Shown piece after piece: positions 15,482 through 59,347 of a stretch of 64,000 nt of DNA (positions within the stretch are counted from its first letter, which is position 1; the number at the start of each line of letters is the position of its first letter). Under the pieces are notes generated by a model, which was given only the letters and a program-made list of their open reading frames with translations, searched no databases and was not told where the DNA came from. The position numbers were made by a program, and so were the translations under genes. Where the stretch lies: contig JAZQZZ010000039.1 in NCBI GenBank assembly GCA_045634305.1, positions 3,818 through 67,817 on the forward strand, read 5' to 3'. The DNA comes from Bacteroidaceae bacterium. GTDB lineage: Bacteria > Bacteroidota > Bacteroidia > Bacteroidales > Bacteroidaceae.

Positions 15482-15671
15482 TTGTACATTATTTATAAAT
15501 CATGCGAAAATACAAAAAAAAGCATGTACTTCAATGCAGATTTTGATTTAAAGCCAAAAAATGTCAAATTTTCTTTAGGGACTTTGCCATTTATAATAAA
15601 TGAAGTACTTTTGTGGAAATTTTATCTGTTTTTGTATTTTTTGCAAAACAAAACAGAGGTTCCGATTGTTT

Positions 15672-39736: not shown

Positions 39737-42700
39737 ATGAAAAGATATGCCATCGCACTGTTGATGCTTTTTGCATCGCTCGGTACCACAGCACAAGTAA
39801 CAAACAATGCCATCAGTTTCGAGAGAAACGGCCGAGTATCATTGGGTACGCCACACAACAGCGGAGCAAACGTTACCACCTTGCAGCTATGGATCAACCC
39901 GCAACACTGGATTCCCGGAGCAAACATCATCACCTGGGGCAACAGCCTCAACATGCAGTTGGGAACACCAGGTGAGCTTATAATAGAAAGCAATGGCGAC
40001 ACTCTTTCATTCAGCGATACCAAGCTGACAACCGGCAATTGGGCGCATATCACGTTGCTTCTCGACGGCAACAGCCTCAGTATGCTTGTAAACAATGCCA
40101 ACCGACAGGACCGCACTCTGTCGGCAGCATTCGCCACACCCACAGCAGAGCCCATGTTGCTTGGTGGCGGTTTCCTTGGACGTATGGACGAGGTACGCAT
40201 GTGGGATTTCATACTCCCTGCCGACTACAACCGGTTCTGGAACAACACAATCGACAGTTTCAACCCACTGTGGAGCCACCTGACAGGCTACTGGAAATTC
40301 GACCAGACACGCCTTGAGAGTAACGTCTACGACTATAGCGGCAAAGGACATAACGGAACATTCAGTGCAAGCGGTGTTGAACGCACTCCGGTCACCGATA
40401 ACCCCGACTTCGTCTACCGCCGCAATCTCGCATACGCCGATTGCAGCCGTTTCTTTGACCGCGGCGTGCAGCATGGTCAGTACCTCAAAAGCAACGTCAT
40501 AAGCATTATTGGAGCAACTGCGCAAGCCGACGGCTCATTGAAATATAAGCAACCCGACAACAAGGGCAGCATCACCGGCGGTATCTACCTTGCCGAACAC
40601 AACGGACGCACTGGTGTGCTTGACCTTGCAGGCAATGGTGCACAGATGAACGTTGGTAAAGATGCACTCATCGCCTACAACAACAGCAACTATCTTGCAA
40701 GCACCACGGCCTACACCTTCATGACATGGCTATCTATTGACACATGGACACCGGGCGCATATCTTTTAATTAAAGAAAGTGACACAAACAACGGCATCTC
40801 ATTACGCATGGGTAATGCACAAGGCGAATTCATCTTGCGTTGCAACGGCTTGGAATTCACATATGCCACCACACTACAACTTAACAAATGGCATCACATA
40901 GGTTTCTCTACCAATGCAACCACACTTGGCAACGAGTTTGTCGTTGTATTTGACGAAACGATTGTCACACCTACCTACAGCCACACTACCGCAGCCACTA
41001 CCACGCTCACCGGTTTGCGCTCAACCGACTGCATCATTGGCGCAGGCATTGACGGCAAGCTCGACGAGACAATCACATGGTCGCAGAAGTTCGGTGCAAG
41101 CGACATTGTTGCACAGGGCAATACACCTGTTGAACCAGGCATTGGAAAAGCCATAACCGGAGCCTATTCACGCAGTGTCGATGGCATGTGGAAATATGAC
41201 ATTGCCGAGGACCTAGGACGCGACAGTTACTCAACCCCCGAGTGGTTCAGAATGATAAAGGCCACCTTCGAGGGTTACGAAGGAGCCCACGTAACCATAA
41301 GCATCGACAAATGGTCCGACGAGTTCTTTACCAAGATAAACAACAATGCCCAATACCGGGAAGCACTTGCCAACGCTATTTCACAGATGGGCAACGAGCC
41401 GTTCCTCGACGGTGTCGACTACGATTTCGAGTGGAACAACAACTGGAGCGGCATTGGTACCCTGTGCCAACTGGTACGCGCCAAACTGCACGACGGCAAG
41501 ATACAAGCCGTGTCGCCACATGAGCTCTACTACAACTTCCCTACCGACAAGATGCAGTATGTCGACTATTTCAACTTCCAGGACTATGGCCCCGGAAACA
41601 AGAACATATTCAACTTCAACAACTACAAGAACTTCTTTACCAAGGCAAAGAGCTACGGTTACCCTGTTGAAAAGATAATGCTCTCATATGCAACCACCAC
41701 AAGCGGTGCCATGTACAGCAACGGCAGCCGCCCGGCAAACACACATCCCGAATTCTACCCCACAGGCTGGCGTTCAATGCCATATGAAACATTCGAGTAC
41801 AGCCAGAACAGCTACGACGTAGGCGATGGACTTACACGCTACTTTACCGGCATGGAACAGGTATGGCTACGCAGTGAATATATGAACAACAACGGCTGCG
41901 CAGGAATATTCTATTGGGACATGGGCAACGACACACGCGATTGCAACGACCCGCGCTCACTTGCCACATATGCATCGTTTGCCATAAACAGCAACGTACA
42001 GAAAATTGTTGAAAAGATTGAAACTGCAGCCGAAGCCCCTGCAGAATATGAATATGAAGAGAGTGCCACCGGATACTATCGCATACGCGGAGCCGGTGAC
42101 GGACACACAACGCACTATCTCTACCAGAACGGCGACGAACTCTATTCCGGCGAAAAAGGAGGCGAGGTGCGCAGCATATTCTGCTTTGAGGAGGCAGCCG
42201 AAAGCAACACGTTCTATCTGAAAGCCAACGACGGCCGTTACATCCAGGACCGCAGCAAGTTGCAGACAAAGCAATCCATCTACCGCTTCGATACCACCCC
42301 TGTATCATACAGCATCAAGGGCGAGGAATACGACTACCCCGAGGGACATTACTGCCTTGAGCAGACCTACTATACCCCCGGCAAACCCGATTTCACCGAC
42401 GTGCAGCGATGCCTCAAATGCAACGGCAACAACGAGGGCGCATCAACCTGGGGACCTTGGACTGCGGCATCACATTGGGCAATAGAGCCTGTCTATGGAT
42501 ATGACGTCTACACTGTTACACTGGCAGACATCGATGCCATCACATGTCTCATTCCCGGCTACACCGGCAGCAACATGATATACAACGGAGGTTTCATAGT
42601 CCTGACTGCTGGAGGAGAGATAACAGCCGATGAGATAGCCGCGGCCAGTGGCGAGGAGATAACCGTTAGCATTGACAAGAACGCAAAGAGCATTGCCGTT

Positions 42701-42844
42701 GCAGCCGGCGCTACAGGCATTGACAGGATGACTGAGCAAAGAACAGAGAGCACAGAGATTCACGACCTCACAGGCCGCCGTGTAGAAACCATCACAGCTC
42801 CCGGCGTTTACATTATAAATGGGAAAAAGAGAGTTGTAAAGTAA
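39737..42844 (+). CDS. LamG-domain / GH18-like glycosidase, T9SS cargo
   Basis: 1035 aa with a signal peptide. LamG-type block GNWAHITLLLDGNSLSMLVNN...GRMDEVRMW. GH18 catalytic motif DGVDYDFEW (DxxDxDxE; Glu codon at 41429..41431). The C-terminus EIHDLTGRRVETITAPGVYIINGKKRVVK is T9SS-CTD-like. Confidence 0.7.
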   Translation: MKRYAIALLMLFASLGTTAQVTNNAISFERNGRVSLGTPHNSGANVTTLQLWINPQHWIPGANIITWGNSLNMQLGTPGELIIESNGDTLSFSDTKLTTGNWAHITLLLDGNSLSMLVNNANRQDRTLSAAFATPTAEPMLLGGGFLGRMDEVRMWDFILPADYNRFWNNTIDSFNPLWSHLTGYWKFDQTRLESNVYDYSGKGHNGTFSASGVERTPVTDNPDFVYRRNLAYADCSRFFDRGVQHGQYLKSNVISIIGATAQADGSLKYKQPDNKGSITGGIYLAEHNGRTGVLDLAGNGAQMNVGKDALIAYNNSNYLASTTAYTFMTWLSIDTWTPGAYLLIKESDTNNGISLRMGNAQGEFILRCNGLEFTYATTLQLNKWHHIGFSTNATTLGNEFVVVFDETIVTPTYSHTTAATTTLTGLRSTDCIIGAGIDGKLDETITWSQKFGASDIVAQGNTPVEPGIGKAITGAYSRSVDGMWKYDIAEDLGRDSYSTPEWFRMIKATFEGYEGAHVTISIDKWSDEFFTKINNNAQYREALANAISQMGNEPFLDGVDYDFEWNNNWSGIGTLCQLVRAKLHDGKIQAVSPHELYYNFPTDKMQYVDYFNFQDYGPGNKNIFNFNNYKNFFTKAKSYGYPVEKIMLSYATTTSGAMYSNGSRPANTHPEFYPTGWRSMPYETFEYSQNSYDVGDGLTRYFTGMEQVWLRSEYMNNNGCAGIFYWDMGNDTRDCNDPRSLATYASFAINSNVQKIVEKIETAAEAPAEYEYEESATGYYRIRGAGDGHTTHYLYQNGDELYSGEKGGEVRSIFCFEEAAESNTFYLKANDGRYIQDRSKLQTKQSIYRFDTTPVSYSIKGEEYDYPEGHYCLEQTYYTPGKPDFTDVQRCLKCNGNNEGASTWGPWTAASHWAIEPVYGYDVYTVTLADIDAITCLIPGYTGSNMIYNGGFIVLTAGGEITADEIAAASGEEITVSIDKNAKSIAVAAGATGIDRMTEQRTESTEIHDLTGRRVETITAPGVYIINGKKRVVK

Positions 42845-42891: not shown

Positions 42892-43479
42892 ATGAACAAC
42901 ATCAGCGAAAAGCACCCGTTGGAGCCATTCCTGCCACAGAATGCAAGGATTCTGATGCTTGGCAGTTTCCCGCCGCCGCAAGCCAAATGGTCAATGCACT
43001 TCTTCTACCCTAACTGGATAAACGACATGTGGCGCGTGATGGGATTGCTGTTCTTCGGCGACAGACACCATTTTGAGCTGAAAGACGAAAAACGTTTCGA
43101 CAAAGAAGCTGTTGTGGAGTTCTGTACCCGGCAGGGAATAGCACTCTACGACACAGCGTGCGAGGTTGTGAGACTAAAGGAAAACGCATCCGACAAATTC
43201 CTTGAGATAAAGACAGCGACCGACATTGCAGCCCTGCTCACCAAACTGCCACAATGCACAGCCATTGTCACCACAGGGCAGAAAGCCACCGACACCATCG
43301 TGGAGAAATTTGGCTGCGTCACACCACTGATGGGCGACAGAACCACCCTGCACATTGCGGGACGCGAGTACAATTTCTGGCGCATGCCATCAACCTCCCG
43401 CGCCTATCCCCTCGCCCTAGAAAAGAAAGCCGCCCACTACCTCAAAATGCTAAAATTTGAAGGCATATCAAGCCTTTAA
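42892..43479 (+). CDS. Uracil-DNA glycosylase superfamily protein (family-6 / deoxyinosine glycosylase-like)
   Basis: 195 aa. The block RILMLGSFPPPQAKWSMHFFYPNWINDMWRVMG is typical of this UDG family. Confidence 0.6.
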   Translation: MNNISEKHPLEPFLPQNARILMLGSFPPPQAKWSMHFFYPNWINDMWRVMGLLFFGDRHHFELKDEKRFDKEAVVEFCTRQGIALYDTACEVVRLKENASDKFLEIKTATDIAALLTKLPQCTAIVTTGQKATDTIVEKFGCVTPLMGDRTTLHIAGREYNFWRMPSTSRAYPLALEKKAAHYLKMLKFEGISSL

Positions 43480-43497: not shown

Positions 43498-43530
43498 TTT
43501 GCATTTATTATGTTTTTTTCTTTATATTTG
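43498..43530 (+). promoter_or_regulatory. Bacteroidetes sigma-A-type promoter of the five-gene operon
   Basis: TTTG (43498..43501), a 21-nt spacer, then TATATTTG (43523..43530), about 100 nt upstream of the ATG at 43629. Confidence 0.55.
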
Positions 43531-43628
43531 CGTATTGGCAATGTTGCACCCCGATATGCAAGGTTGCCAACATTTTGATTGTCAAACCATTAGAATCATT
43601 TCAAAGTATAAAAACATTATTTGATAAT

Positions 43629-44147
43629 ATGAGAAACTATTTCTACATCATTGCCATTTTGTCGCTTATGGTTTCATGTACATCCACTCTATCTGAACCA
43701 TCAAACAAGAAAGAATATATTGAGGATGCACGTAATTTCTACAATCAGGTAGAGGATAACAAGAACACCATCAATCACAAGCTTTGGAGCGAATATAAGA
43801 ACATGAATGATAAGATTATTGGAGAGTACTATCTTCGTTTCAGAGAAGAACTTGTAGCCAGGGAGATTGTATTCATTGGCAACCAGAACAAGAAATTCAA
43901 AAAATATTATTCTGACTACAAAACGCGATATGATTTGGTTGATGAATCTCTAAAAAACGATGGTGATTCAATCAAGATTGCAAGGAAAATTAAGAAATAC
44001 CATGAAAATGGGCAAGAAAATGAATTAACTCAATATCTTGAGGATGCCATTGCTTTGGGTGGCAAAACCAAGATTTATCCCAAAGCAATACTTTTTGACC
44101 TTGAAATTGACGAAGAATACAGCTACCTTTGGGGAGAAGAATGGTAA
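43629..44147 (+). CDS. Small lipoprotein, function unknown (operon gene 1)
   Basis: Start chosen at the ATG at 43629. MRNYFYIIAILSLMVSCTS is a lipoprotein signal with Cys. The remainder is Lys/Glu-rich and helical. The track ORF starts at a TTG at 43575. Confidence 0.55.
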   Translation: MRNYFYIIAILSLMVSCTSTLSEPSNKKEYIEDARNFYNQVEDNKNTINHKLWSEYKNMNDKIIGEYYLRFREELVAREIVFIGNQNKKFKKYYSDYKTRYDLVDESLKNDGDSIKIARKIKKYHENGQENELTQYLEDAIALGGKTKIYPKAILFDLEIDEEYSYLWGEEW

Positions 44148-44171
44148 TAACAAACTAATAAAAAATAATAT

Positions 44172-45287
44172 ATGAATTATAAAGCTATTATCGCAATTCT
44201 GTCACTGTGCTTTGCTGCGCCCACAATAACTGTAAATGCGCAAGAGACGAACGACAAGCAGTTTTATGTCTATCTTTGGGATGTGACACTCTCTATGCTT
44301 GGTCCAGAAAGAGGAGGTGTAGAGGATGTCTGGGACAGCACCAAAGAGTGGCTGATAAACGAAATCAAGTCTAGAAAGACTAACCCTGGCGACACAATCG
44401 TCGTTTGCCCTTTCCAAGAGTGCATTATCAGTGGTGATACAGGTTTGAAAAGGATCGATGCAAAAACCGTCGTGCCAAGACCATACGTATCCGATGCAAC
44501 AGGTGAACCAATGACTTATGACTCCCCATGGAAATTTCCGGCAACTCCCAACGGCAAGCGCGAACTTATAAAGAAAATTGAATCGTTCGTGCAACCGCAT
44601 CACGGCAAAACGAACCTTTATGACCCATTAATGGATGCAAAAAGGGATTATGTCGACATGACCAAGCATAGTACAACCATATACATGCTTACAGATGGTA
44701 TAGATGATTTCAATGAGAATACAGACAAGTCATTCATCAAGGAAATAAATGAAAAATGGAGTAAAAGAGACCCGTTGCTTATCTATATCCGTTTAACAGA
44801 TGCTGCATGCGCCGACATAAAACCTAGTGACAATGTTGAGATAATCAATCCCAAAGAAAGGCTAATTGAAATTTCGGCAACAGTAGCCGGTAAATATAAT
44901 TTTATTGACGCTGTAAAAGAAAACAGAAAGACACAAACAATCAACATCAATCAGGTACAAAAAAACTATGAGCTACCTGAAGGCATAAAAATAAAAGTGA
45001 CATCAGACAATAATCCTTATGTCAAGATTGACGATGTATGCGAAGTCGTTGACGGAAAAATCGACGTCAAACTCAAATACAACCAACAGACTGTTGACGA
45101 AAACATATACAGCAACAGCACCATTGACCTGAACTTCAATGTTGTCAACGACAAGTTGATTAGCGATGATGGATATGTTTATATCATCTCTCTCTCAAAT
45201 ACAAGTTCAAAGACACTTGAGTTGGTAAACAAAGTTCAAAAGACTTTGAAAATCAAGCTTAGAAAAGCTGAACCCATTGAAGAATAA
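44172..45287 (+). CDS. Exported von Willebrand factor A (vWA) domain protein with MIDAS motif (operon gene 2)
   Basis: 371 aa with signal peptide MNYKAIIAILSLCFAAPTITVNAQ. MIDAS elements: FYVYLWDVTLSM (DxTxS, 44280..44294), HHGKTNLYDPL and TIYMLTDGIDD (Asp175 codon at 44694..44696). C-terminal beta-rich domain. Confidence 0.7.
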   Translation: MNYKAIIAILSLCFAAPTITVNAQETNDKQFYVYLWDVTLSMLGPERGGVEDVWDSTKEWLINEIKSRKTNPGDTIVVCPFQECIISGDTGLKRIDAKTVVPRPYVSDATGEPMTYDSPWKFPATPNGKRELIKKIESFVQPHHGKTNLYDPLMDAKRDYVDMTKHSTTIYMLTDGIDDFNENTDKSFIKEINEKWSKRDPLLIYIRLTDAACADIKPSDNVEIINPKERLIEISATVAGKYNFIDAVKENRKTQTININQVQKNYELPEGIKIKVTSDNNPYVKIDDVCEVVDGKIDVKLKYNQQTVDENIYSNSTIDLNFNVVNDKLISDDGYVYIISLSNTSSKTLELVNKVQKTLKIKLRKAEPIEE

Positions 45288-45302
45288 ATAAAAAAGATAA
45301 AA

Positions 45303-46208
45303 ATGAAAGCATTACTTCGTATTATACCACTTTTAGTGATAGCAATACTCGTTTCTTGTGGTCAGGACAAAGACAGGTATGCATTGTTCGGTGAGACCAA
45401 AGCCTATGAGTCATGGGGATGGCACGAATACACTCCCCAGAAAATGGAGCGTTATCTGGATCTTGAATGGAACGATGCCTGCAAGAATTGGCTCAAGGAC
45501 AAGCCAATTACAATAGCAGTGTATACCACTGATGATTATGGTGACGAGATTCCCGCAGAAGACGTAAAGATTTACAAGAACGATGTACTTTGTGAAGGAA
45601 ATAGTTTCACTGTCACCACAGATGAGACCGAAGTAAAATTCGCACTTGAGTTCAAGAAAAGTGCAAAGGACGGTGAACACATTTACTCTTTGAAATACAT
45701 ACCCGAAGGGGGAGAAACAGAGATTCTTGACGAGATTTCTTTCGAAAGTTTCGGTGATGACAACAAGATGATGGCCGACAAAGAGACCATTATGAACCCA
45801 TTGAAAGAAAAAGTCATATGGGCAACATGTATTTTCTTGACTGTTAGTATATTATGGTATATTCTGTCACGTTTTGTATTTTGGCGTAAAACACCATTCT
45901 CAAAGGTTACAATCACATACGAGAACGGTTCAGAAAGAACTATCAGAATGAAGGGTGGCAACAGCCTTGTATGTACAGCAAACACAAAGACCAAGGATTC
46001 TTTCTTTGCAAAGCTTTTCAAAGGAAGCAGACCATACGAATATCACGATTTCTGGACGTCACCGGTTACTATCGGCCGCGGCACAAGAAGCAACAGCATA
46101 TCGTTCACCGGAACAAGACGATATTCAATAAATGGTGAAAGGATACGACGTAGTCCAATTGAAATAATAAACGAGAACGGCGAAAAAGCTACAATACAAA
46201 CAACGTAA
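45303..46208 (+). CDS. Bitopic membrane protein: lipoprotein-type signal, about 150-aa outside domain, one TM, about 107-aa cytoplasmic tail (operon gene 3)
   Basis: 301 aa. MKALLRIIPLLVIAILVSCG signal. TM VIWATCIFLTVSILWYILSRFVFW (45813..45884). The tail contains PVTIGRGTRSNSISF...YSINGERI. Confidence 0.55.
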   Translation: MKALLRIIPLLVIAILVSCGQDKDRYALFGETKAYESWGWHEYTPQKMERYLDLEWNDACKNWLKDKPITIAVYTTDDYGDEIPAEDVKIYKNDVLCEGNSFTVTTDETEVKFALEFKKSAKDGEHIYSLKYIPEGGETEILDEISFESFGDDNKMMADKETIMNPLKEKVIWATCIFLTVSILWYILSRFVFWRKTPFSKVTITYENGSERTIRMKGGNSLVCTANTKTKDSFFAKLFKGSRPYEYHDFWTSPVTIGRGTRSNSISFTGTRRYSINGERIRRSPIEIINENGEKATIQTT

Positions 46209-46245
46209 TCAACAAAAAAATAATAACAACTTAATTCATTTAACT

Positions 46246-49179
46246 ATGGCAAGATTAGTTATAAGACCATCAATTTATATCGGCCTTGGCGGCACCGGTA
46301 TATTGGCGATTTCGCAGACAAAGAAAATGTACGAACAGGAGTTTGGTGAGGGCAATATCCCCAGACAGATTGCTTTCATTGCAATTGACTTTGACACAAC
46401 CGCTCCCAAAAATTCAAATCTGGCAACAGATATAAGCACAGATTTCATGCAAATACCTGATGGTATTGATCCATTGGGTTTCTATCAGGAAGGGCTGGAA
46501 CAGGGCGAGTACAAATGGATGTTCCCCTGCAACGCAGGCTACATCGCACGTAAGATTGTTGATGGTGCAAGCCAGGTAAGAACAACCGGCCGTTTGTATA
46601 CAGAGCTAATCTATTCACACATTGAAGCAAGAATCAGAAACAGCTTTAACAGAGTACAGAACATTGCAAACGAGACAACTGGTGGTGTCGTAGATGTACA
46701 CATGGCAATGTCTATTGCCGGTGGTACAGGTGCCGGTTCATTCATGACAGTTGCGCACATCATCAAGGAGGCATATCCAACGAATGTGAACCTTTATGGC
46801 TATGGTGTAAATTGGGGGGTATTCAGAGCGATGGACCCAAGCGGAAACAAGACACCACGTGTAATTTCAAATTCCTATGCCGCAATTATGGATATTGATT
46901 ACACAATGCATGCTACACCAGCAGAGCCCAAGAAATTGTCTCTCAATAATGAAGAGAAAACAATCAAGAGACCTATTTTTGACACATTCTATGTTATTGA
47001 CAACAAGACAAACCAGGGCGGTGTTGTAAACAGCGTGACAGAGTTGTGCGAAGTTGTTGGTACAAGCATGTATCTATCCGGAAATAAATTGGGTAACAAC
47101 ATTGCATCAATTGCAAGCAACGTTGGTTGGTCAAATGGCTCATATAATATAAAGAACAAGAAAGGTTGGGTACACGGTTTAGGTGCTTGTCAGGTAGTAT
47201 ATAAAGGCGATGAACTTGCAAAAGTATACAAATACAAAGTAGCAAAAGTTCTTATCCAGAAGTTGATTTCACAGGGATTTGAAATTGAGCAGGCTGCTAT
47301 CAACTGGACCATGCTGAGCGATGTAATGATTCGAGAGGATGGCGACCAGTTCAACTACCTCATTGATTCTATTTACCTTGGATCTGAAATCAATAGGCTG
47401 AAAGCTCCTCAGCTCGACATTAATGACACTGACGCCAAGACAAAGGACAATGCTGAAAAATACATCAATGACATGAGCGGCTTCACAAGCGAAGAGAAAA
47501 TCAAGGCTCGCAAAGTCGCTATTGAAGAAGCATTGAAAAAGGAAGTAGAGAAGTATCTTAAAGAAGAGAACGGAATTGGCAATGCAATCACATTCCTTAC
47601 CAAACTTACTTCACTTTGCGCACAATACAAGAATGAAATGCAGGATGAGTACCTTACCATTGACAAGAAAATAACCGATCTTCATAAAAAGCTCGAAGAG
47701 GGATACAAAGAGTATGAGGATAAGAGAAATGGATTTAAATGGAAATTCAGAAGTCTCGAGACAAAAGAAGCCATTCTTGAGGAGTGCATTACTGTAACAG
47801 CAAATACAATCCTTAAACAGAAATTCGAGGCACAGCGCCGCAGAGTAGCCGAGAGTATCTTCAATGAACTTATTGAGTTGATTAAGACATTGAAGACAGG
47901 TGTTGAAAACACAATGACAACACTTAACAACATTGCATTATCATACAGCAATGAATTGGAAAAACTTCAGAAGGACACAACATCTGCACGTCAGTTTGAG
48001 TACGACCTATCTCAAATAGAGCGCGTAAACATGACACTTACTGCTGAGGATGCGGCAAGTTTGCTCGTCAGCGACTTCGTTAGTACACTCAACAAATCCG
48101 TTTCTGAGTACTCACAACATGATTTGTCAGAAGCAATCCTTACATACACTGATACTCTTGAAAGAACAAAGAGATATCGCGAGACACTTGTACTTGATGT
48201 AATCGACAAGTTGAGTGAAGTGGAATGGGAGAATTTGATAGAGACAATCACATGCAAATCAGGTCTATTGCTTGACATTAACAACAAGGGTCAGAAGATT
48301 GCCGGTTCACCAGCAAACCAGAAGATGGTATCCAACTTCATGGTTGCATACTATGGCAAGGACAACGCAACCCTTACGCGTTTCCAGAAAGACCCGGCAT
48401 TCATGCACAATATATTGAACAAACATTGGGTTTCAATGGATACCGACATCATGAGACAGAGGGTAATCTTCTACCGAGTTGATGGTGCTATTATCCCTTA
48501 CTGTCTGAATGAGTTCCCTGATCATGTAATCGAATCCGGCTACAACAAGGATGTACGCAACAAGCATACATTCAACCCACACTACGATAGCACCATCTTT
48601 GATTGGATGCAAGCCAATGACTTCAAGTTGAAACCAGAAATGTCTAACGAGGCTATGTTCTATTGGGTATGCGGTCACATCTTCGGTTGGGACGATATCA
48701 CAGAAACAGAGAGAATCATGGAAAAGGATGAACGCGGTGTTGTTGTCAAAGAGATAGACAAAGAGAACAAGCCTCATAGAAAGTTTATCAGTTGCCAGAA
48801 GGGAAGCTACTTCTATTGGGATGAAGAGACAATGTCACGTCCAGGCACAAAGAAGTGGGTTCCACTTGAAGAAGCTGGAACAAAACGTCGTGATACAGCG
48901 TTCAACTACTTCAAGACACGAGTTCTCCCCGAGAAGAAGGACCTATTCTATTCACTTATCAAGAGTGAAGTCAGCAGTAAGGGTATCAGCTACTATCAGG
49001 GTATTATTGATGGCATCGTAAGTCGCGGCATTGATGACTATATCAACCAGCTCGTATGTTCAGACAAGAGCAGCATCACATACTCTCAAAAGGGCAACGG
49101 TGGTGAGTTGCAAGCTATCATGGCTGAATTTGAATATTTGAGCAGAGATTTGAAGAACACATTGAGCAATCTTAATTAA
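46246..49179 (+). CDS. Tubulin/FtsZ-superfamily GTPase-like protein with long C-terminal extension (operon gene 4)
   Basis: 977 aa with no signal or TM. IGLGGTG (46279..46299). AGGTGAGS (46717..46740) matches the tubulin signature [SAG]GGTG[SA]G. DGASQVRTTGR lies between them. The C-terminal roughly 600 aa are coiled-coil-rich and unassigned. Confidence 0.7.
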   Translation: MARLVIRPSIYIGLGGTGILAISQTKKMYEQEFGEGNIPRQIAFIAIDFDTTAPKNSNLATDISTDFMQIPDGIDPLGFYQEGLEQGEYKWMFPCNAGYIARKIVDGASQVRTTGRLYTELIYSHIEARIRNSFNRVQNIANETTGGVVDVHMAMSIAGGTGAGSFMTVAHIIKEAYPTNVNLYGYGVNWGVFRAMDPSGNKTPRVISNSYAAIMDIDYTMHATPAEPKKLSLNNEEKTIKRPIFDTFYVIDNKTNQGGVVNSVTELCEVVGTSMYLSGNKLGNNIASIASNVGWSNGSYNIKNKKGWVHGLGACQVVYKGDELAKVYKYKVAKVLIQKLISQGFEIEQAAINWTMLSDVMIREDGDQFNYLIDSIYLGSEINRLKAPQLDINDTDAKTKDNAEKYINDMSGFTSEEKIKARKVAIEEALKKEVEKYLKEENGIGNAITFLTKLTSLCAQYKNEMQDEYLTIDKKITDLHKKLEEGYKEYEDKRNGFKWKFRSLETKEAILEECITVTANTILKQKFEAQRRRVAESIFNELIELIKTLKTGVENTMTTLNNIALSYSNELEKLQKDTTSARQFEYDLSQIERVNMTLTAEDAASLLVSDFVSTLNKSVSEYSQHDLSEAILTYTDTLERTKRYRETLVLDVIDKLSEVEWENLIETITCKSGLLLDINNKGQKIAGSPANQKMVSNFMVAYYGKDNATLTRFQKDPAFMHNILNKHWVSMDTDIMRQRVIFYRVDGAIIPYCLNEFPDHVIESGYNKDVRNKHTFNPHYDSTIFDWMQANDFKLKPEMSNEAMFYWVCGHIFGWDDITETERIMEKDERGVVVKEIDKENKPHRKFISCQKGSYFYWDEETMSRPGTKKWVPLEEAGTKRRDTAFNYFKTRVLPEKKDLFYSLIKSEVSSKGISYYQGIIDGIVSRGIDDYINQLVCSDKSSITYSQKGNGGELQAIMAEFEYLSRDLKNTLSNLN

Positions 49180-49187
49180 TTGACAAA

Positions 49188-52100
49188 ATGAACTATTGCG
49201 TACATTTCTTCGTTGGTAAGGAATTTGAGACATTATTGGAAGGCATTGCATACGACCTTCTCAAAAACGACCTTTCGGCACTTAAATTCAACAAGTATTA
49301 CTTAATTGAATCAGGAGTAGATGGTCATTTGAATTATCGCGAACTAAAAGTTTGTGTTAAAGACAGTAAAGAAGAAGGAAACGTTGAATTCACAACAATA
49401 GATTGTCTTAACAACAATATTGCCTTATCCTGGGCTAACGTTGAACAGGGCAATAGTAATGATAAAGAGAATTTGTTTACTGGTATTTTCGACAGTGTAC
49501 TTACTGTCGAAAATGCCAGAAAACAAAGCTTGCTCAACACTTTTATATACTTCCCATTATACAAGGAAGAAAGCATCGGCCTAGTAGGCAACCTGTGCAA
49601 AAATATCACGACTTCCTCAAAAAGTAATCTGACAGAAGTTACATTCATTACATTTGGTGATGACATGTGCAAGGTTATTGAAGAGGATTACAAGACAAAG
49701 CCTACAACAACCAAAAACCTTGACAAATTTGACAAGATTCGCAATGAATTGGGTCTCGTTGAACAGAAAAGCCACCTTGTATTCATGCACGACAGTACCA
49801 CTAGCGGTTTGGCGCTTGGTATGGACAAGGCCAAGTTTACAGACATGTTGGCACAGCTTGCAATTCTGATGTCAACATCGTACAAGGAGATTTTCCCAAT
49901 GATAAACAGCGAGGCAGAGGCTACATGTATCGGTTTCTCTTCGCTTTACTTCAGTGAATATCTATTCATCAATTACCTTGTCAATAAGGCAACACTCGCT
50001 GCAATAGACAGTGCATCGGTAAATGACGAAAAGATAGATATAAACAAGACATTCCAGACAACTAATGAAATGTTGAGAAGACGAGACAACATTCTCTCAA
50101 CATTCCTCAACAAGCACAAGACCGATTGTGCAGAAGGTAGCCACAAGGAAATAGCAGAGGAGATAGAAGACATCCTGAAATCAGTTTCTGCCAAATTCCA
50201 GGAGACAAAGAATATGACAGAAAAAGCAGCTATACTTGCAGCACTGCTTTCAAAAACCGATTATGAATTGTTTGCAAACGCTGTATACAATTCAGAAAAC
50301 ATCAACCTCAGTGACTTGTACAACGAGGCTATCGAATTCTTCATCACAGAGGACGTTGCAAAATTCTATAAGGAGGGGGAAGATGAACTTATCAACCCAT
50401 TAAAGGAGTTGAAAATCATTAATCAGAAAATTCTTAACTCATCGAGCCAGATACGCGAACTTGAAAAGAGTTCTTCAGAACTTGAAAAACTCATCGACGA
50501 GAGTGGCAAAGCACAGGAGTGTTTTGTAAGCAATGAGATTACCATTGACGACAAAAAATTCCGTTTGCTTCCATCTGTTGAAGAAGAACCCCTACAGGAA
50601 TGCTACGAAGAACATGAAGTAAGCATTGAGAGTATCGACTTGAGAGGAAACTTCAGCCCAATAAAGAGCCAGGGACAGCAGGGCTCATGCGTTGCGTTCA
50701 CATTGACATCTATTTTTGAATATATGATGAAAGTGAGCAAGCAGGAAGATTGCGACCTCAGCGAAGCCTTCCTGTATTACAACGCCAGACATCTTGACCA
50801 GGCAGATGACGTGAGCACACAAGAGGATAGCGGTTCACGCTACAAACCATCGATGGATTCTCTTGTCAAATATGGTATCGCCCTGGAAAAAGTGTGGCCA
50901 TACCATGAGGAGATATATACACAAAAGCCATCGAACGAAGCATACGAAGATGCAGGCAAGAGAAAACTCAGAAAAGCATTGAGCGTAAAGCTTAATTCAG
51001 ACGCAATAAAATCGGCATTGTCAGACGGCTACCCTGTTGCAGGTAGTTTTGCATTGTTCCCCAGCTTTTTTGAAGCCGGAGCATATATCCCCATACCTTC
51101 ACAGGAGGAGATTGAGCAAACAAAGGCAAATGCCAACAACCCCGAGAAGCAACTAAAGCATGGACATCACGCCATGGCCATTGTAGGTTTCAGCGACCAG
51201 TTGAACATGTTCCTTGTCCGTAACTCATGGGGCGAGGATTGGGGTGATAAAGGATATTGCTACATACCATATGCTTATATCAACAATCCCGAGCTATTCA
51301 CTTTTGCTGCTATTATTACAGAAGTGGATTCCCTTGAGACAAAGATGCCCGAGCTGCGTGAAATTCCCGCACTCAAGATTGACAGTGACGATATTCTTAT
51401 CCGTTTCTATATTACAAAGGCTGCGCTTGACAACGAAAGACGTGCACTATGCTTGTACAAGAAACAGAGGGATGAATGGCAGGCATATTTCGAGGCTTTG
51501 AAAATAAAATATGCAAATTCCAATGACAATAGAAGATTCGTCAATGCTAACACTGAATTCCACAACAATGAAATTGTTAGGTTGGAGAATGAAAACAAAG
51601 AGGCAGAAACCAGACTCGAAGGTATAAAGAAAGAGCTTAACAAATCTAATTTGATAGCCATCATCAAAATGATAGCTTTTGTTGTTCTGACATTCGTTGG
51701 CGGAATAGCTATTAACAAATGGCTGGTTAGTATACATAACAATGCAAAGGACAAACTGCTCAGCGCAATCAGTAATGACAATTATGGTGGTTTCGCAGAA
51801 AAGGTTGTAAAATTCCTTGACGCTGAAAACGGTGGTACAATCCAATTGAGCTGGTGGGTAATGATACTCATTTCTGCTGTTATAATCGGATTTATCATCT
51901 ATAGGCAAAGTTCAAAATGGAAGGTCTGGAGAGAAGAACGCGATACATTGTATGTAAAGATTGAGAGAAACGAAAAAGAGATTGCCACAAGAAAGAGCAC
52001 AATAAAGACACTGAAATTCTCGGCATTCGCAGCATGGACAGTAATAACAAACCTTACAACCATGCAAGAGAAATTGCTGAAGATGTACAACAGTATCATA

Positions 52101-52691
52101 TCACTGATAAACAATTTGAGAGTTTGGTACAAGGAAGTTGAACAGAACAACAATAAGATTAGCCTTGCTTCAACATTCTCTAACATATCACTCTTATCAG
52201 AGGATATTCTTGACAACTATTTCAACAACACTTTAAAGAATACTGGTGAATGCGATGTTGACCTATGTGAAGAGATTGACAAGTTTGCAATTGACGCAGA
52301 ATTCCTTGCAAACTTTAAGCAACAGCTACGCAATAAGATCATCACTAAGTTACAGGAACATCTGGAACGTAAGGAGTTCTCTGTAACAGAGCATATGGTC
52401 AAGAATACATATAGCGACATCGCCATAAAGGTCGACTATGATATAATAAGCGATTTACAAAGGAACTCGAACCTATTTGCATACGTTGAAACTTTGAAAC
52501 AAGATGCAAAGGCAGCCATTGCACCAGACTTAGAGAACTACAGACACGATGTGTTGGACAAATTAGCACCAGGCACCACATTGTTAGAGTCAACAAACAA
52601 ATACCGAATGCAAGTCGTAAATGTACGCCTTCTCAAGTACAGCGAGATTGTTGCCTTCAGAGGAGCTACTGTAAGCGGCAAAAAGAAATGA
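49188..52691 (+). CDS. Membrane-anchored papain-family (C1) cysteine protease with large N- and C-terminal unknown domains (operon gene 5)
   Basis: 1167 aa. IDLRGNFSPIKSQGQQGSCVAFT (Gln495, Cys501 codon at 50688..50690). KHGHHAMAIVGF (His661 at 51168..51170). LVRNSWGEDWGDKGYCYIPY (Asn679 at 51222..51224). TM hairpin LIAIIKMIAFVVLTFVGGIAI / LSWWVMILISAVIIGFIIY (about 51649..51903). No signal peptide. Confidence 0.8.
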   Translation: MNYCVHFFVGKEFETLLEGIAYDLLKNDLSALKFNKYYLIESGVDGHLNYRELKVCVKDSKEEGNVEFTTIDCLNNNIALSWANVEQGNSNDKENLFTGIFDSVLTVENARKQSLLNTFIYFPLYKEESIGLVGNLCKNITTSSKSNLTEVTFITFGDDMCKVIEEDYKTKPTTTKNLDKFDKIRNELGLVEQKSHLVFMHDSTTSGLALGMDKAKFTDMLAQLAILMSTSYKEIFPMINSEAEATCIGFSSLYFSEYLFINYLVNKATLAAIDSASVNDEKIDINKTFQTTNEMLRRRDNILSTFLNKHKTDCAEGSHKEIAEEIEDILKSVSAKFQETKNMTEKAAILAALLSKTDYELFANAVYNSENINLSDLYNEAIEFFITEDVAKFYKEGEDELINPLKELKIINQKILNSSSQIRELEKSSSELEKLIDESGKAQECFVSNEITIDDKKFRLLPSVEEEPLQECYEEHEVSIESIDLRGNFSPIKSQGQQGSCVAFTLTSIFEYMMKVSKQEDCDLSEAFLYYNARHLDQADDVSTQEDSGSRYKPSMDSLVKYGIALEKVWPYHEEIYTQKPSNEAYEDAGKRKLRKALSVKLNSDAIKSALSDGYPVAGSFALFPSFFEAGAYIPIPSQEEIEQTKANANNPEKQLKHGHHAMAIVGFSDQLNMFLVRNSWGEDWGDKGYCYIPYAYINNPELFTFAAIITEVDSLETKMPELREIPALKIDSDDILIRFYITKAALDNERRALCLYKKQRDEWQAYFEALKIKYANSNDNRRFVNANTEFHNNEIVRLENENKEAETRLEGIKKELNKSNLIAIIKMIAFVVLTFVGGIAINKWLVSIHNNAKDKLLSAISNDNYGGFAEKVVKFLDAENGGTIQLSWWVMILISAVIIGFIIYRQSSKWKVWREERDTLYVKIERNEKEIATRKSTIKTLKFSAFAAWTVITNLTTMQEKLLKMYNSIISLINNLRVWYKEVEQNNNKISLASTFSNISLLSEDILDNYFNNTLKNTGECDVDLCEEIDKFAIDAEFLANFKQQLRNKIITKLQEHLERKEFSVTEHMVKNTYSDIAIKVDYDIISDLQRNSNLFAYVETLKQDAKAAIAPDLENYRHDVLDKLAPGTTLLESTNKYRMQVVNVRLLKYSEIVAFRGATVSGKKK

Positions 52692-52745
52692 GAAAGTATA
52701 AATAAATGCGCAATGTTTGCAAACTGATAGGCGCAACAACATCAC

Positions 52746-52776
52746 GGGACCGGCTTTATAAAGCCGGTCCCCTTTT
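52746..52776 (+). terminator. Rho-independent terminator of the five-gene operon
   Basis: gggaccggcttt-at-aaagccggtccc followed by ctttt. Confidence 0.7.
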
Positions 52777-52825
52777 GTTATAGGCAAAAAACCGTAAACG
52801 AGTCACATATTCAATAAAATAATAA

Positions 52826-52833
52826 TATATTTG
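52826..52833 (+). promoter_or_regulatory. Bacteroidetes -7 box (TATATTTG) for 52879..53721
   Basis: TAnnTTTG match 46 nt upstream of the ATG. Confidence 0.4.
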
Positions 52834-52878
52834 CGCAAGGATAGAAATTTTAGACTGAACGCATAAACACAAGCACAT

Positions 52879-53721
52879 ATGTCACTATTCAATTGGTTAA
52901 AAGGACTTTTTAGTGGAAAGTCGATAAAAGGGAGCAACTCTACGAGCACAAAGACTATAACTCCGCAGCCAAAGGAGCGCAATATTACGCCATCACACCA
53001 TGCAAGGCACAAGGAGTACAACGCCGGTTCGGCAAAACGTCTGTCGGGGAGCATATATGTGCTTGCGGTATTTGCCGGTGACGGGCATTGGAGCAGAGCC
53101 GGGAAGGAGAAGTTGCTTAACGAGCTGTACAAGGCCGAAAAATGGATAAGGAAAGAGGCTGCACGCTATGGCAAGAGCGTGAGTTTCAAACATGGGACAT
53201 ACGGTCTCGACAAGACCATCAACGTGCATGTTGCTCCGGGACATGGTACCGGCAACGAGGATTGCCGTGTCGCGCACAAGGTTCTCGGTGCTGCAGGATA
53301 CAAGAGCATTGGGCAGTTCTATGAGTGGTTCAGGAAGAACGAGCAGTGCGACAATTGCCTGGTCATAGTCTTTGCACAGGGACGGGGACGTTCATATGCC
53401 GTACCCTACACTCCTGAATATAACGCGGACTATTTTACCGAGAGTTGTATAATCTACGAGGCTTACGAGGATGGCACGCCGCAAATTGCCTTTGGCATGG
53501 CACACGAGATGCTCCACTGCTTTGGTGCCGAAGACTTGTACGAAACGTTCGAAAAGCCACAGATTGTTGAGCAGGAGGCAAAGAAACGTTATGGCAACGA
53601 CGTGATGCACAGGTTCGACTATGAACTCGACAACCTTAAGATTGACGAGTTCACAGCATGGTGTGTGGGACTTACCGATACATGGAAGGATGAGTTCAAC
53701 ATTTTCCTGAAGAAGAAATGA
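52879..53721 (+). CDS. Putative cytoplasmic zinc metalloprotease (HExxH...GAEDxY)
   Basis: 280 aa with no signal peptide. Motif FGMAHEMLHCFGAEDLY (HEMLH = 53503..53517), reminiscent of the HExxHxxGxxDEY layout of M64-like zincins. It has its own promoter box, and its composition resembles the core genome. Confidence 0.5.
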   Translation: MSLFNWLKGLFSGKSIKGSNSTSTKTITPQPKERNITPSHHARHKEYNAGSAKRLSGSIYVLAVFAGDGHWSRAGKEKLLNELYKAEKWIRKEAARYGKSVSFKHGTYGLDKTINVHVAPGHGTGNEDCRVAHKVLGAAGYKSIGQFYEWFRKNEQCDNCLVIVFAQGRGRSYAVPYTPEYNADYFTESCIIYEAYEDGTPQIAFGMAHEMLHCFGAEDLYETFEKPQIVEQEAKKRYGNDVMHRFDYELDNLKIDEFTAWCVGLTDTWKDEFNIFLKKK

Positions 53722-54163: not shown

Positions 54164-54454
54164 ATGGAAGATAGAGAACTGGGAATAAACCTTATAATAG
54201 ATGGTACATCGTACCCGCTGACAATAAAGGCTAGCGATGAGCCTTCGTACAGGCAAGCCGCAAGAATTGTCAACGATACGCTGTCAAGATATAAAGACCT
54301 CTTTTCGGGCGAAGGTGGCGTGAGAGTGATGACAATGGTCGCACTCGACATTGCCTATCACGCCGTGAGCGGTTCAAATGGGGTTACATCGGACGAGGTG
54401 AGACGTAAGATTGCCGAGCTCACACGTCTGGTAGATGACTCCCTGAAGGCATAA
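54164..54454 (+). CDS. zapA: Cell division protein ZapA
   Basis: 96 aa. INLIIDGTSYPLTIKASDEPSYRQAARIVNDTL is ZapA-like. It has the conserved position before rny in Bacteroidetes. Confidence 0.7.
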   Translation: MEDRELGINLIIDGTSYPLTIKASDEPSYRQAARIVNDTLSRYKDLFSGEGGVRVMTMVALDIAYHAVSGSNGVTSDEVRRKIAELTRLVDDSLKA

Positions 54455-54573: not shown

Positions 54574-56115
54574 ATGAATGTTACAACATTAATCATCGGA
54601 CTGGCAGTCGGATTGGCAATAGGCTTCCTGGTCCAACTTTTGATAAACAAGACCGCCTTGAAGGCTAAACACCAGCGCATCATTGACGACGCACACAAAG
54701 AGGCCGAGGTAATCAAAAAGAACAAATTGCTTGAGGTCAAGGAGAAGTTCCTCAACAAGAAGGCAGAACTTGAGAAGGAGATTTCGCAGCGCAACAACAA
54801 GATACAGCAAGCCGAGCACCAGCTCAAGCAGCGCGAGATACAATACAATCAGCGCAACGAGGACCTGCAGCGCCGCAAGAACGAGCTCGACACAGTAAAG
54901 GAGAACCTTGAGGCACAGCGTGCCGTACTTGAGCGCCGCCAGGAGGAACTTGACAAGATGCACGCACAGGAGCGCGAGAAGCTTGAGGCTATCAGCGGTC
55001 TGTCGGCCGACGAGGCAAAGGAGCGCCTCATCGAGTCACTAAAGGAGGAGGCAAAGAGCGAAGCTGCATCATACATCAACGACATCATTGACGATGCGAA
55101 GATGACCGCCAACAAGGAGGCAAAGAAGATTGTGATACAGACCATCCAGCGCGTGGCAACAGAAACAGCAATAGAGAACTCGGTGACCGTGTTCCACATT
55201 GACAGCGATGAGATGAAGGGCCGCATCATTGGCCGCGAGGGACGCAACATCCGCGCATTGGAGGCTGCTACCGGTGTTGAGATTGTTGTCGACGACACCC
55301 CCGAGGCTATCGTGCTGAGCGCATTCGACCCTGTTCGCCGCGAGATTGCACGCCTTGCTTTACACCAACTTGTTGCCGACGGCCGCATACACCCTGCACG
55401 CATTGAGGAGGTTGTTGCCAAGGTGAAGAAACAGATCGAGGAGGAAATTATCGAAACAGGTAAGCGAACCACCATAGACCTGGGTATTCACGGCATGCAT
55501 CCCGAGCTCATCCGCATCATAGGTAAGATGAAGTACCGTTCATCATATGGCCAGAACCTGTTGCAGCACGCACGTGAGACAGCAAACCTCTGTGCCGTTA
55601 TGGCTGCCGAGCTTGGCCTCAACCCCAAGAAGGCTAAACGCGCCGGCTTGCTGCACGATATCGGTAAGGTACCCGATGAAGAGACCGAATTGCCACATGC
55701 AGAGTATGGTATGAAGATTGCCGAGAAGTACAAGGAGAAACCCGATATCTGCAATGCCATCGGTGCTCACCACGACGAGGTAGAGATGACAAGCCTCATC
55801 GCCCCAATCGTACAGGTATGCGACGCCATCTCGGGCGCACGTCCCGGCGCTCGCCGCGAGATTGTAGAGGCATACATAAAGCGTCTGCACGACCTTGAGC
55901 AGCTTGCAATGTCATACCCGGGCGTAACAAAGACATATGCCATCCAGGCCGGTCGCGAGCTGCGTGTGATTGTCGGTGCCGACAAGATCGACGACAAGCA
56001 GACCGAGCTTCTCTCTGGCGAGATTGCAAAGAAGATTCAGGACGAGATGACATATCCCGGCCAGGTGAAGATTACCGTCATCCGCGAGACACGTGCAGTG
56101 AACTACGCACGATAA
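54574..56115 (+). CDS. rny: Ribonuclease Y
   Basis: 513 aa with an N-terminal TM, a coiled coil, KH block [19 protein letters not shown] and HD block GLLHDIGK. Confidence 0.92.
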
Positions 56116-58930: not shown

Positions 58931-59325
58931 GGGGCTATCTGGATTTGACAGCGGGTAGAAAAGGTATGTAAGCACGCAGTGCATTGCCGGTTCGCACTAT
59001 AATATGAGCAGGCAAAAATTTATCTGGCAACAATAACTACGCTCTTGCTGCTTAATCGAAGTATAGTAGATTAGCTTAATCCCTGCACCAGGTGCGGGGA
59101 CGAGACATCACCCGGACGCTGTTGTTCCGAAGCAATCCGATATGGTGGTGCAGGCAAATCGGAACTAACCATTGCAGGCCTCGATGCAATGGCGACATTT
59201 TAGAGGATAAGGCGCAGGTTGGCGGTCGCGGTCTTGCCTGTGCTCGAAAAACCCACCGATGACTAAGCGTGTAGAAAGCATATTGTTTCCCTGTTTGGAC
59301 GAGGGTTCGACTCCCTCTAGCTCCA
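58931..59325 (+). ncRNA. ssrA: tmRNA (transfer-messenger RNA)
   Basis: The 5' ggggcta pairs with the 3' tagctcc acceptor end. T-arm ggacgagggttcgactccctc. Tag ORF ggcaacaataactacgctcttgctgcttaa = GNNNYALAA-stop (59025..59053). CCA is not fully encoded (caa). Confidence 0.92.
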
Positions 59326-59347
59326 CAAAGAAAACTACATTTCAAAA

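Follow-up and report, generated by a model that had tools for sequence, protein, structure and literature searches.

A Bacteroidales variant of the FtsZl1-vWA operon class with a predicted membrane-tethered papain-like protease

A 64,000-nucleotide (nt) stretch of a contig from a Bacteroidaceae bacterium (JAZQZZ010000039.1, assembly GCA_045634305.1), hereafter referred to in its whole length as the window, carries a cassette of five open reading frames (ORFs) on the plus strand (43629..52691). This cassette is a Bacteroidales variant of the known FtsZl1-vWA operon class, of which a gene trio was tabulated for Bacteroides caccae in 2010, and it is composed of a chromosomal four-gene core (ORF2 to ORF5) and an optional lipoprotein gene (ORF1). 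The features of the locus are as follows.

43498..43530, plus strand: putative Bacteroidetes-type promoter, from direct reading of the sequence (-33 element TTTG at 43498-43501, 21-nt spacer, -7 element TAnnTTTG, here TATATTTG, at 43523-43530)
43629..44147, plus strand: ORF1, small lipoprotein-like protein of 172 amino acids (aa), an accessory component (hydrophobic N-terminus, lipobox Cys, signal ..LMVS/C)
44172..45287, plus strand: ORF2, exported vWA-domain protein of 371 aa (signal peptide end ..VNA/Q; vWA matches at the family level; C-terminal domain with no assigned fold)
45303..46208, plus strand: ORF3, predicted bitopic coupler of 301 aa (lipoprotein-type signal ..LVS/C19 and a single transmembrane (TM) helix, by hydropathy)
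46246..49179, plus strand: ORF4, FtsZl1/Tubulin_2 GTPase of 977 aa (match to Pfam PF13809; T1 and T4 loops)
49188..52691, plus strand: ORF5, predicted membrane-tethered papain-like protease of 1167 aa (Peptidase_C1 match; TM hairpin)
ORF5 aa 1-300 (approximately), plus strand: N-terminal alpha/beta domain and helical linker (AlphaFold2 model)
50631-51332, plus strand: ORF5 C1 peptidase domain, aa 482-715, with Q495, C501 (50688-50690), H661 (51168-51170) and N679
51651-51707 and 51846-51902, plus strand: ORF5 TM hairpin with long helices, aa 822-840 and 887-905 (hydropathy)
3' of the TM hairpin, plus strand: ORF5 C-terminal alpha/beta domain (AlphaFold2 model)
52746..52781, plus strand: intrinsic terminator (11-bp G+C-rich stem, 4-nt loop, T-rich tail)

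The five ORFs are separated by intergenic gaps of 24, 15, 37 and 8 nt, and their coordinates and gaps proved identical on re-reading to those given in an earlier note on this DNA. Two starts are available for ORF1, the TTG at 43575 called by the ORF lister and the ATG at 43629, of which the latter is likelier because it yields a proper lipoprotein signal (..LMVSC). The promoter consensus of Bacteroidetes consists of TTTG at -33 and TAnnTTTG at -7, and the TTTG, 21-nt spacer and TATATTTG that had been claimed as a promoter were found where they had been placed. The full motif (TTTG-N19-21-TAnnTTTG) occurs in three copies on the two strands of the 64-kb window, against 0.87 expected, and one of them sits within the 149-nt gap 5' of ORF1. 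At the other end of the cassette, the hairpin GGGACCGGCTT-TATA-AAGCCGGTCCC (52746-52771), followed by CTTTTGTTAT, lies 55 nt past the stop codon of ORF5 and outscores every other terminator-like site of the region by far. A hairpin with a T-rich tail had been noticed at this site before, although its stem consists of 11 pairs (8 of them G-C) and not of 12. The AT-richness of the block relative to its flanks was also correct, with a GC content of 0.40 in the cassette versus 0.51 in the left and 0.50 in the right flank. Moreover, all motif positions of the earlier note were confirmed (DVTLS, T147 and TDG in ORF2; GLGGTG and SIAGGTGAG in ORF4; Q495, C501, H661 and N679 in ORF5), and the topology that it had predicted agreed with a hydropathy analysis of ORF1 to ORF5.

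The proteins of the cassette

Related loci, 85 in number, were fetched and examined by iterative hidden Markov model (HMM) searches with the five window proteins. ORF4 belongs to the tubulin superfamily and, judged by hydropathy, should be cytoplasmic; its GTP-binding loops are conserved, and one region resembles a coiled coil. It matches Pfam Tubulin_2 (PF13809) over aa 10-337 with E=1.9e-50, which bears out the previous assignment to tubulin/FtsZ-type GTPases. Because a later study equates PF13809 with the FtsZ-like family of Makarova and Koonin, this match places ORF4 in the FtsZl1 family. The T1 loop GLGGTG lies at 46282-46299 and the T4 signature SIAGGTGAG at 46711-46737, and the GTP loops (G13-L-G-G-T-G18; S156 and G159-G-T-G162-x-G164) are at least 90% conserved across 80 ORF4 orthologs. 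A heptad-rich, coiled-coil-like stretch was located at approximately aa 451-624 by a rough heptad heuristic, and a weak helix-rich NCBIfam match covers residues 377-592. No signal peptide and no hydrophobic or TM segment could be detected by hydropathy. An identity as canonical FtsZ or tubulin was rejected, since the match to canonical Tubulin (PF00091) remained below threshold (20.9 bits, cut-off 33) and no FtsZ_C or Tubulin_C domain was found in the Pfam scan. In addition, a sequence search of PDB revealed no relative of ORF4.

ORF5 is predicted to be a catalytically intact papain-family protease that is held at the cytoplasmic face of the inner membrane by its TM hairpin. The papain-fold C1 assignment made earlier was supported by a match to Pfam Peptidase_C1 (PF00112, E=2.8e-16), by the best solved relative, the bacterial cysteine protease Xylellain of Xylella fastidiosa (PDB 3ois; 1.2e-20 by sequence and 1e-13 by fold), and by the catalytic residues Q495, C501, H661 and N679, which are invariant across 23 aligned ORF5 homologs, the most distant at 21% identity. 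In papain, these positions correspond to the oxyanion Gln, the catalytic Cys-His pair and the Asn by which the His is oriented. In the AlphaFold2 model of ORF5 (predicted local distance difference test, pLDDT, 80.5), an alternating beta/alpha domain and the papain domain are accompanied by the hairpin, which very long helices surround, and by an alpha/beta domain at the C-terminus, and a fold search with the full model returned papain matches only. No signal peptide was detected by hydropathy. Basic residues flank both TM helices on their outer sides, and the N-terminal domains, the protease and the C-terminal domain are therefore all predicted to be cytoplasmic.

A search of 1.84 billion representatives returned the N-terminal region of ORF5 (residues 1-440) in only 145 clusters; nearly all of these proteins are 1100-1250 aa long and carry the region at their N-terminus, so that it is specific to this architecture. 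The order of its secondary structure elements recalls nucleotide-binding folds, yet no G-rich loop or P-loop is present, and its top fold matches, all sub-significant, were a mixture of vWA, Ras/G-alpha and CetZ proteins (3zid, E=0.013). A degenerate tubulin or GTPase domain was considered here but found no support, as an hhalign comparison with the N-terminal domain of ORF4 was non-significant (E=0.1) and no fold match reached significance. On the modelled structure, the domain is left as a putative generic three-layer alpha/beta domain.

Judged from its family, ORF2 is an exported vWA domain with a conserved metal-binding site of the metal ion-dependent adhesion site (MIDAS) type. The proposed MIDAS residues are D37-x-T39-x-S41 (44280-44294), T147 (44610-44612) and T174-D175-G176 (44691-44699). 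In an alignment of 47 ORF2 orthologs, D37, S41, T147 and T174-D175-G176 are invariant and T39 is at least 90% conserved; since the invariant columns are the proposed MIDAS positions, the site itself is conserved. The vWA assignment of the earlier note holds for the family, in which Pfam VWA is matched individually by 26 of the 47 orthologs (best E=3e-9) and whose profile retrieved the vWA domain 4cn8 from PDB at 1.7e-10, followed by integrin alpha-L I domains at about 0.02. It does not hold for the window protein alone, as the single sequence gave no vWA match in Pfam, NCBIfam or PDB.

ORF3 is predicted to span the inner membrane once and to expose a cytoplasmic tail of approximately 110 aa. 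On the basis of hydropathy, it would comprise a periplasmic domain (approximately residues 20-165), a TM helix (171-189; 45813-45869) and a beta-rich cytoplasmic tail (190-301), and C19 is invariant among its orthologs. In 23 loci, an apparent lack of ORF3 coincides with an "ORF2" of 575-680 aa. With HMMs made solely from unfused ORF2 or ORF3 proteins, all 23 long proteins showed a complete ORF2 module followed by an ORF3 module from about model position 25. In these fused proteins, ORF3 is placed at the C-terminus of ORF2 and lacks only its own signal sequence. That the two are one polypeptide in about a quarter of the loci shows that ORF2 and ORF3 act together in one compartment and that the membrane does not separate the vWA domain from the N-terminal domain of ORF3.

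Conservation, transfer and relation to known systems

In a survey of one genome per GTDB species, relatives of ORF5 turned up in the genomes of at least 574 species. Almost all belong to Bacteroidales, including Bacteroidaceae, Muribaculaceae, Rikenellaceae/Alistipes, Prevotellaceae, Paludibacteraceae and Porphyromonadaceae, and they are mainly gut and rumen metagenome bins. Full-length relatives of the protease reach down to approximately 26% identity. The co-localization of the genes, proposed earlier as a check, was observed wherever the protease gene was found: in every fetched locus with contig room, the core ORF2-ORF3-ORF4-ORF5 lies in one order on one strand. Annotated contigs agree on this order, and one ORF2 ortholog has a precomputed Pfam VWA match. 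Even in the outermost member of the family, with 26% protease identity, a 765-aa protein, a Tubulin_2 protein and a C1 protease follow each other in that order. ORF2 and ORF3 mostly overlap, and the median gap between ORF4 and ORF5 is 7 nt. ORF1 homologs were found in only 24 of the 85 loci, either 5' of ORF2 or 3' of ORF5. The core proteins diverge at equal rates, with median identities to the window copies of 31, 28, 30 and 31% (48 loci), and the best-conserved modules are C1 (49%), vWA (37%) and the GTPase (36%). The bins that hold three of the cassettes (L046, L056 and L070) carry the labels Ructibacterium (Firmicutes), Planctomycetaceae and Eggerthellaceae, respectively. Mis-binning is more likely than cross-phylum transfer in these cases because the arrangement is typical of Bacteroidales.

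The closest genome is a Bacteroidaceae metagenome-assembled genome (locus L006) whose protease is 93% identical to that of the window. The cassette occupies the same site in both genomes; nucleotide identity is 87% over the glycosylase-like gene and the cassette and 89-91% over the flanks. Vertical inheritance of the cassette since that split is therefore indicated by the shared site and flanks. Across 54 loci, the GC content of the cassette minus that of its flanks averages -0.018 (range -0.146 to +0.097) and is negative in 42. The earlier suggestion that the block was horizontally acquired is plausible in view of its low GC content, but a recent acquisition does not agree with the same site at 87% nucleotide identity in a sister species. 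Taken together, the synteny with L006, the GC offsets and the cross-family relatives of the protease indicate repeated, older horizontal transfer within Bacteroidales rather than a recent island.

The operon class itself was described by Makarova and Koonin in 2010 (Biol Direct 5:33). They placed FtsZl1 in predicted operons whose other members are vWA proteins, often secreted and bearing a MIDAS, and membrane proteins specific to particular lineages, and they proposed membrane remodelling or vesicle biogenesis as the role of these operons. For Bacteroides caccae ATCC 43185, Additional file 5 of their article gives the genes BACCAC_02056 (535 aa, hypothetical), BACCAC_02057 (913 aa, FtsZl1) and BACCAC_02058 (1152 aa, COG4870 cysteine protease), which, because their sizes and order match, represent the same cassette in its fused form. 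The main text of the same paper makes no mention of a protease, and the upstream Bacteroides gene is not labelled as vWA. The class and the window cassette share a protein of about 1000 aa whose N-terminal, GTP-binding domain is FtsZ/tubulin-like, an adjacent vWA gene with an intact MIDAS, and membrane-associated, lineage-specific partners. The coiled coil and the C-terminal region of the class may correspond to the coiled-coil-like stretch of ORF4 and the region past it. Of the features of the class, a Tubulin_2-type domain with T1 and T4 loops and, beside it, a signal-peptide-bearing vWA protein with a MIDAS are present in the window. As the class is described, FtsZl1 exists in addition to a conventional FtsZ encoded at another place in the genome; within its 64 kb, the window has ZapA but no second tubulin-like gene. 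The extra GTPase, protein kinase and OmpA partners featured in 2010 are absent from the cassette. Thus, the candidate novel system of the earlier note had been described in 2010, with the B. caccae trio already tabulated, and its alternative proposal of a membrane-remodelling cytoskeletal module coincides with the hypothesis of that year. The present analysis adds that the upstream gene encodes a MIDAS-vWA protein, that ORF2 and ORF3 exist separately as well as fused, that the protease has an invariant active site and a predicted tethered cytoplasmic topology, and that conservation is broad (at least 574 species with the protease).

A second related group is formed by the GAP1-N2 GTPase-centric systems, which were read as NTP-dependent conflict systems by Kaur, Burroughs, Iyer and Aravind in 2020 (eLife 9:e52696). 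In that study, about half of the GAP1-N2 systems, in Firmicutes and Actinobacteria only, contain tubulin plus coiled-coil proteins together with membrane proteins whose vWA domain is extracellular, and the companions of these are GAP1, a zinc-ribbon GTPase and FNIII proteins. These systems resemble the cassette in a tubulin domain fused to a coiled-coil/alpha-helical region, an extracellular vWA, a predicted action at the membrane and a proposed regulated, NTP-dependent assembly. However, their defining components, namely GAP1, a TRAFAC "DO" GTPase that carries zinc ribbons at its N-terminus and a protein of FNIII repeats, are all missing from the cassette, and no C1 protease has been described in them, whereas the cassette has one. 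No match to a P-loop GTPase family (Pfam and NCBIfam) or to fn3 (Pfam) was obtained for any of the five cassette proteins.

Resemblance to two further groups is partial. With papain-family C1 peptidases such as Xylellain, ORF5 shares the Q/C/H/N catalytic residues and the papain fold; its peptidase domain, however, is embedded in a 1167-aa protein between a family-specific N-terminal domain and the TM hairpin, has no signal peptide and always lies beside FtsZl1. MoxR-vWA systems, to which the Bat aerotolerance operon of Bacteroides belongs, likewise pair membrane-associated MIDAS vWA proteins with an NTPase. That NTPase is of the AAA+ type, whereas the NTPase of the cassette belongs to the tubulin superfamily and its output is a protease. 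No match to a MoxR-like AAA+ ATPase was found in the cassette or its recurrent neighbours.

Possible roles of the cassette

A relay architecture that spans the envelope is the best explanation of these features, and we consider its chances to be about even. The periplasmic ectodomain formed by the MIDAS-vWA protein and ORF3 would bind a ligand or partner, and ORF3 would relay the periplasmic signal across the membrane. Its tail might then recruit or nucleate GTP-dependent ORF4 assemblies at the membrane, which could position or activate the tethered ORF5 to cut membrane-proximal substrates. The architecture is clear, with a MIDAS-vWA input outside the cytoplasm, a fusion-supported coupler, an NTPase and an enzymatic output with a known catalytic cysteine. 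An envelope- or membrane-associated role (remodelling, vesicle or surface-structure control) is weakly supported as likelier than a dedicated anti-phage system, because defence context and mobile-element carriage were not found and the exported parts are not hypervariable.

Several observations weigh against the relay. Neither ORF1 nor ORF3 has relatives in Pfam, NCBIfam or PDB, even in profile searches of Pfam and PDB in the case of ORF3. No recognisable relatives of the C-terminal region of ORF4 or the C-terminal domain of ORF5 were obtained in Pfam and NCBIfam scans, and the N-terminal domain of ORF5, modelled separately with AlphaFold2 (pLDDT 73), had no PDB match at E<=1e-3. Among the matches listed, the closest relatives of the window protease are from Muribaculaceae (40%) and Ca. 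Enterocola (39%), with Bacteroides at 27-30%, and the GC offsets given above are widely spread. A second Tubulin_2 paralog, in one or two extra copies, lies downstream in approximately 12 loci; this and the other variable downstream genes (Endonuclease_NS, TIR plus leucine-rich repeat (LRR) proteins) fit a conflict system too, as do the cross-family relatives and the GC offsets. The literature search returned no paper on BACCAC_02056-58 and no functional or experimental study of FtsZl1 or of tubulin-like plus vWA systems. Finally, the T6-H7/T7 elements needed for canonical polymerization could not be identified in FtsZl1 by Makarova and Koonin (2010).

An anti-phage or abortive-infection conflict system, in which the vWA/ORF3 part senses an invader or envelope damage and a thresholded, NTP-dependent ORF4 assembly frees ORF5 (in some loci along with a nuclease or TIR effector) so that the cell dies or is arrested, is somewhat unlikely. 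It is kept alive by the variability of the genes downstream, by a patchy distribution with transfers and by what has been published on related systems, as Kaur et al. (2020) interpreted neighbourhoods of tubulin, coiled-coil and extracellular vWA proteins in just this way for Firmicutes and Actinobacteria. The conflict reading of the earlier note was thus already in print, and abortive infection is neither shown nor excluded by the present data. The phylogeny of the cassette is incongruent with taxonomy, its GC content is anomalous in the window genome and variably offset elsewhere, the catalytic residues of the protease are always intact, the slot after ORF5 is variable (Endonuclease_NS in 9-10 loci, TIR plus LRR in L024, extra paralogs), and an AbiEii gene is nearby in L004. 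Against these points stand the defence searches. PADLOC-DB v2 gave no family match for ORF2 to ORF5, as the earlier note had expected of the cassette, a chance-level match only for ORF1, and none for the recurrent accessory proteins; sporadic neighbours showed weak matches only (a ThsB-like TIR in L024 and a generic radical-SAM in L035). No defence-island context was found among 126 immediate neighbours from 76 loci, which were scanned with PADLOC and Pfam and counted without a formal enrichment statistic. The commonest PADLOC families among them were mad8 (three proteins) and PDC-S02 (two), and the Pfam matches were mostly to housekeeping families (RecA, NAD-ligase, S1, peptidase M3, polysaccharide export and transporters), with TIR_2 in two proteins and Endonuclease_NS in seven. 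Moreover, carriage on phages, plasmids or viral contigs was not found, evolution of the exported "sensor" parts is no faster than that of the cytoplasmic ones, none of the components GAP1, DO-GTPase and FNIII of the published systems was found, and the nuclease has a signal peptide and therefore would not reach cytoplasmic phage DNA.

A surface-adhesion or cargo-processing machine appears quite unlikely. In such a machine, the vWA protein would serve as an adhesin or cargo receptor anchored through ORF3 to an FtsZl1 scaffold, and the protease would mature or release components, by analogy with the integrin I-domain, cytoskeleton and calpain, or with the vWA adhesin CglB at the focal adhesions of Myxococcus. 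The MIDAS-type vWA is closest in PDB to adhesive vWA and integrin I domains, ORF1 and ORF3 carry lipoprotein signals, a trans-membrane link is present and a secreted nuclease is a frequent operon partner. However, the analogy comes from the fold class only, a cell-surface location of ORF2 is without support, and no motility, secretion or pilus genes are linked among the neighbours examined. Carriage as prophage or integrative/conjugative-element cargo, or a chance juxtaposition of unrelated genes, is extremely improbable. The GC content below that of the flanks and a transfer-messenger RNA (tmRNA) gene, a common integration target, 6 kb downstream would agree with mobile cargo, but the gene order is conserved over the fetched loci, at least 574 species encode the protease, and the same site and flanks recur in the sister species. 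Furthermore, no integrase or phage genes were present among the neighbours examined, and the cassette was found neither in IMG/VR viral contigs (generic C1 domain matches only) nor in phage records; a plasmid search returned only distant pairs of tubulin-like and vWA proteins on Thermus/Meiothermus megaplasmids. The conserved order, the sister-species site and the lack of viral, plasmid or phage occurrences effectively refute this explanation.

A bolder version of the relay is an "outside-in" switch, in which ligand binding by the periplasmic, integrin-like MIDAS-vWA domain would drive a tubulin-superfamily polymer to assemble on the inner membrane, dependent on GTP, and so activate the tethered papain-like protease as a cell-fate or envelope-repair effector. 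We regard it as rather unlikely. If true, it would represent an immunity or stress-response mechanism of a new class, widespread in gut and rumen Bacteroidales; to our knowledge, a trans-envelope switch of this kind has not yet been demonstrated in bacteria. On present evidence, the cassette adds no new kind of system to the catalogue. FtsZl1 is the most diverged branch of the tubulin/FtsZ superfamily, with no experimental function in the searchable literature sixteen years on, and the question of its function becomes directly testable by simple point mutants. Bacteroides caccae ATCC 43185 is a type strain that is believed to be culturable and genetically tractable.

Neighbouring genes

An Endonuclease_NS protein (E=6e-47) with a signal peptide is encoded directly 3' of ORF5 on the same strand in 9-10 loci (L027, L039, L040, L045, L046, L048, L061, L066, L070 and L078; e.g. 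L048:8787-9725), with gaps of 4-8 nt in several of them, which suggests an optional sixth operon member in some lineages. The same slot is taken in 6-10 loci by a protein of 330-385 aa with no assigned family, and a radical-SAM pair is located near the cassette in four loci. A protein with TIR_2 and a BspA-type LRR is encoded 8 nt past ORF5 in one locus (L024:13236-14873; weak ThsB-like and PDC-S66 PADLOC matches), and in another locus (L004, 16057-17648) the cassette is followed at a distance of a few kb by LRR_5 proteins and the AbiEii gene. These TIR, LRR and AbiEii associations are sporadic and not conserved.

On the Thermus and Meiothermus megaplasmids, tubulin-like proteins with 23-25% identity over the GTPase domain were identified in three hits (H1, H2 and H3, the last being NC_019387.1, a Thermus oshimai megaplasmid), and one such gene is annotated beside a vWA protein. 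These pairs are other, plasmid-borne members of the FtsZl1-vWA class.

Upstream of the cassette, the gene at 42892-43479 had been taken for a uracil-DNA glycosylase (UDG). It falls below every Pfam UDG threshold and matches the NCBIfam DNA-deoxyinosine glycosylase TIGR04274 with E=2.6e-11 (43.9 bits versus a cut-off of 80), so that it is at most a diverged member of the UDG superfamily. Before it, a 1035-aa protein (39737-42844) contains Laminin_G_3 (E=2e-17) and a weak GH18 match, and its C-terminus looks by eye like a type IX secretion sorting domain.

In L006, an extra 2.6 kb directly after the cassette (13585-16179) encodes a second Tubulin_2 paralog of 790 aa (PF13809, E=8e-41) with an intact T1 loop. 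The window has no such gene at the corresponding place (52779-52983), where the terminator is directly followed by the next gene, and no second tubulin-like gene was found anywhere in its 64 kb. This next gene is a 280-aa HExxH ORF (52879-53721) with no Pfam or NCBIfam family and with a TATATTTG motif of its own at 52826-52833. The only other locus with this ORF is L006, in which it lies 39 nt past the second Tubulin_2 paralog, and it is outside the conserved cassette. Further downstream, ZapA (54164-54454; PF05164, E=5e-12) and RNase Y (54574-56115; TIGR03319, E=1e-199) form a housekeeping context, and the position of ZapA beside an FtsZ-like cassette is probably a coincidence because other loci have different flanks. 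The tmRNA gene lies at 58931-59326. In L006, the counterpart of this segment (22639-23107) aligns the other way round from the flanks that both genomes share, and a local rearrangement at the tmRNA segment is therefore suggested.

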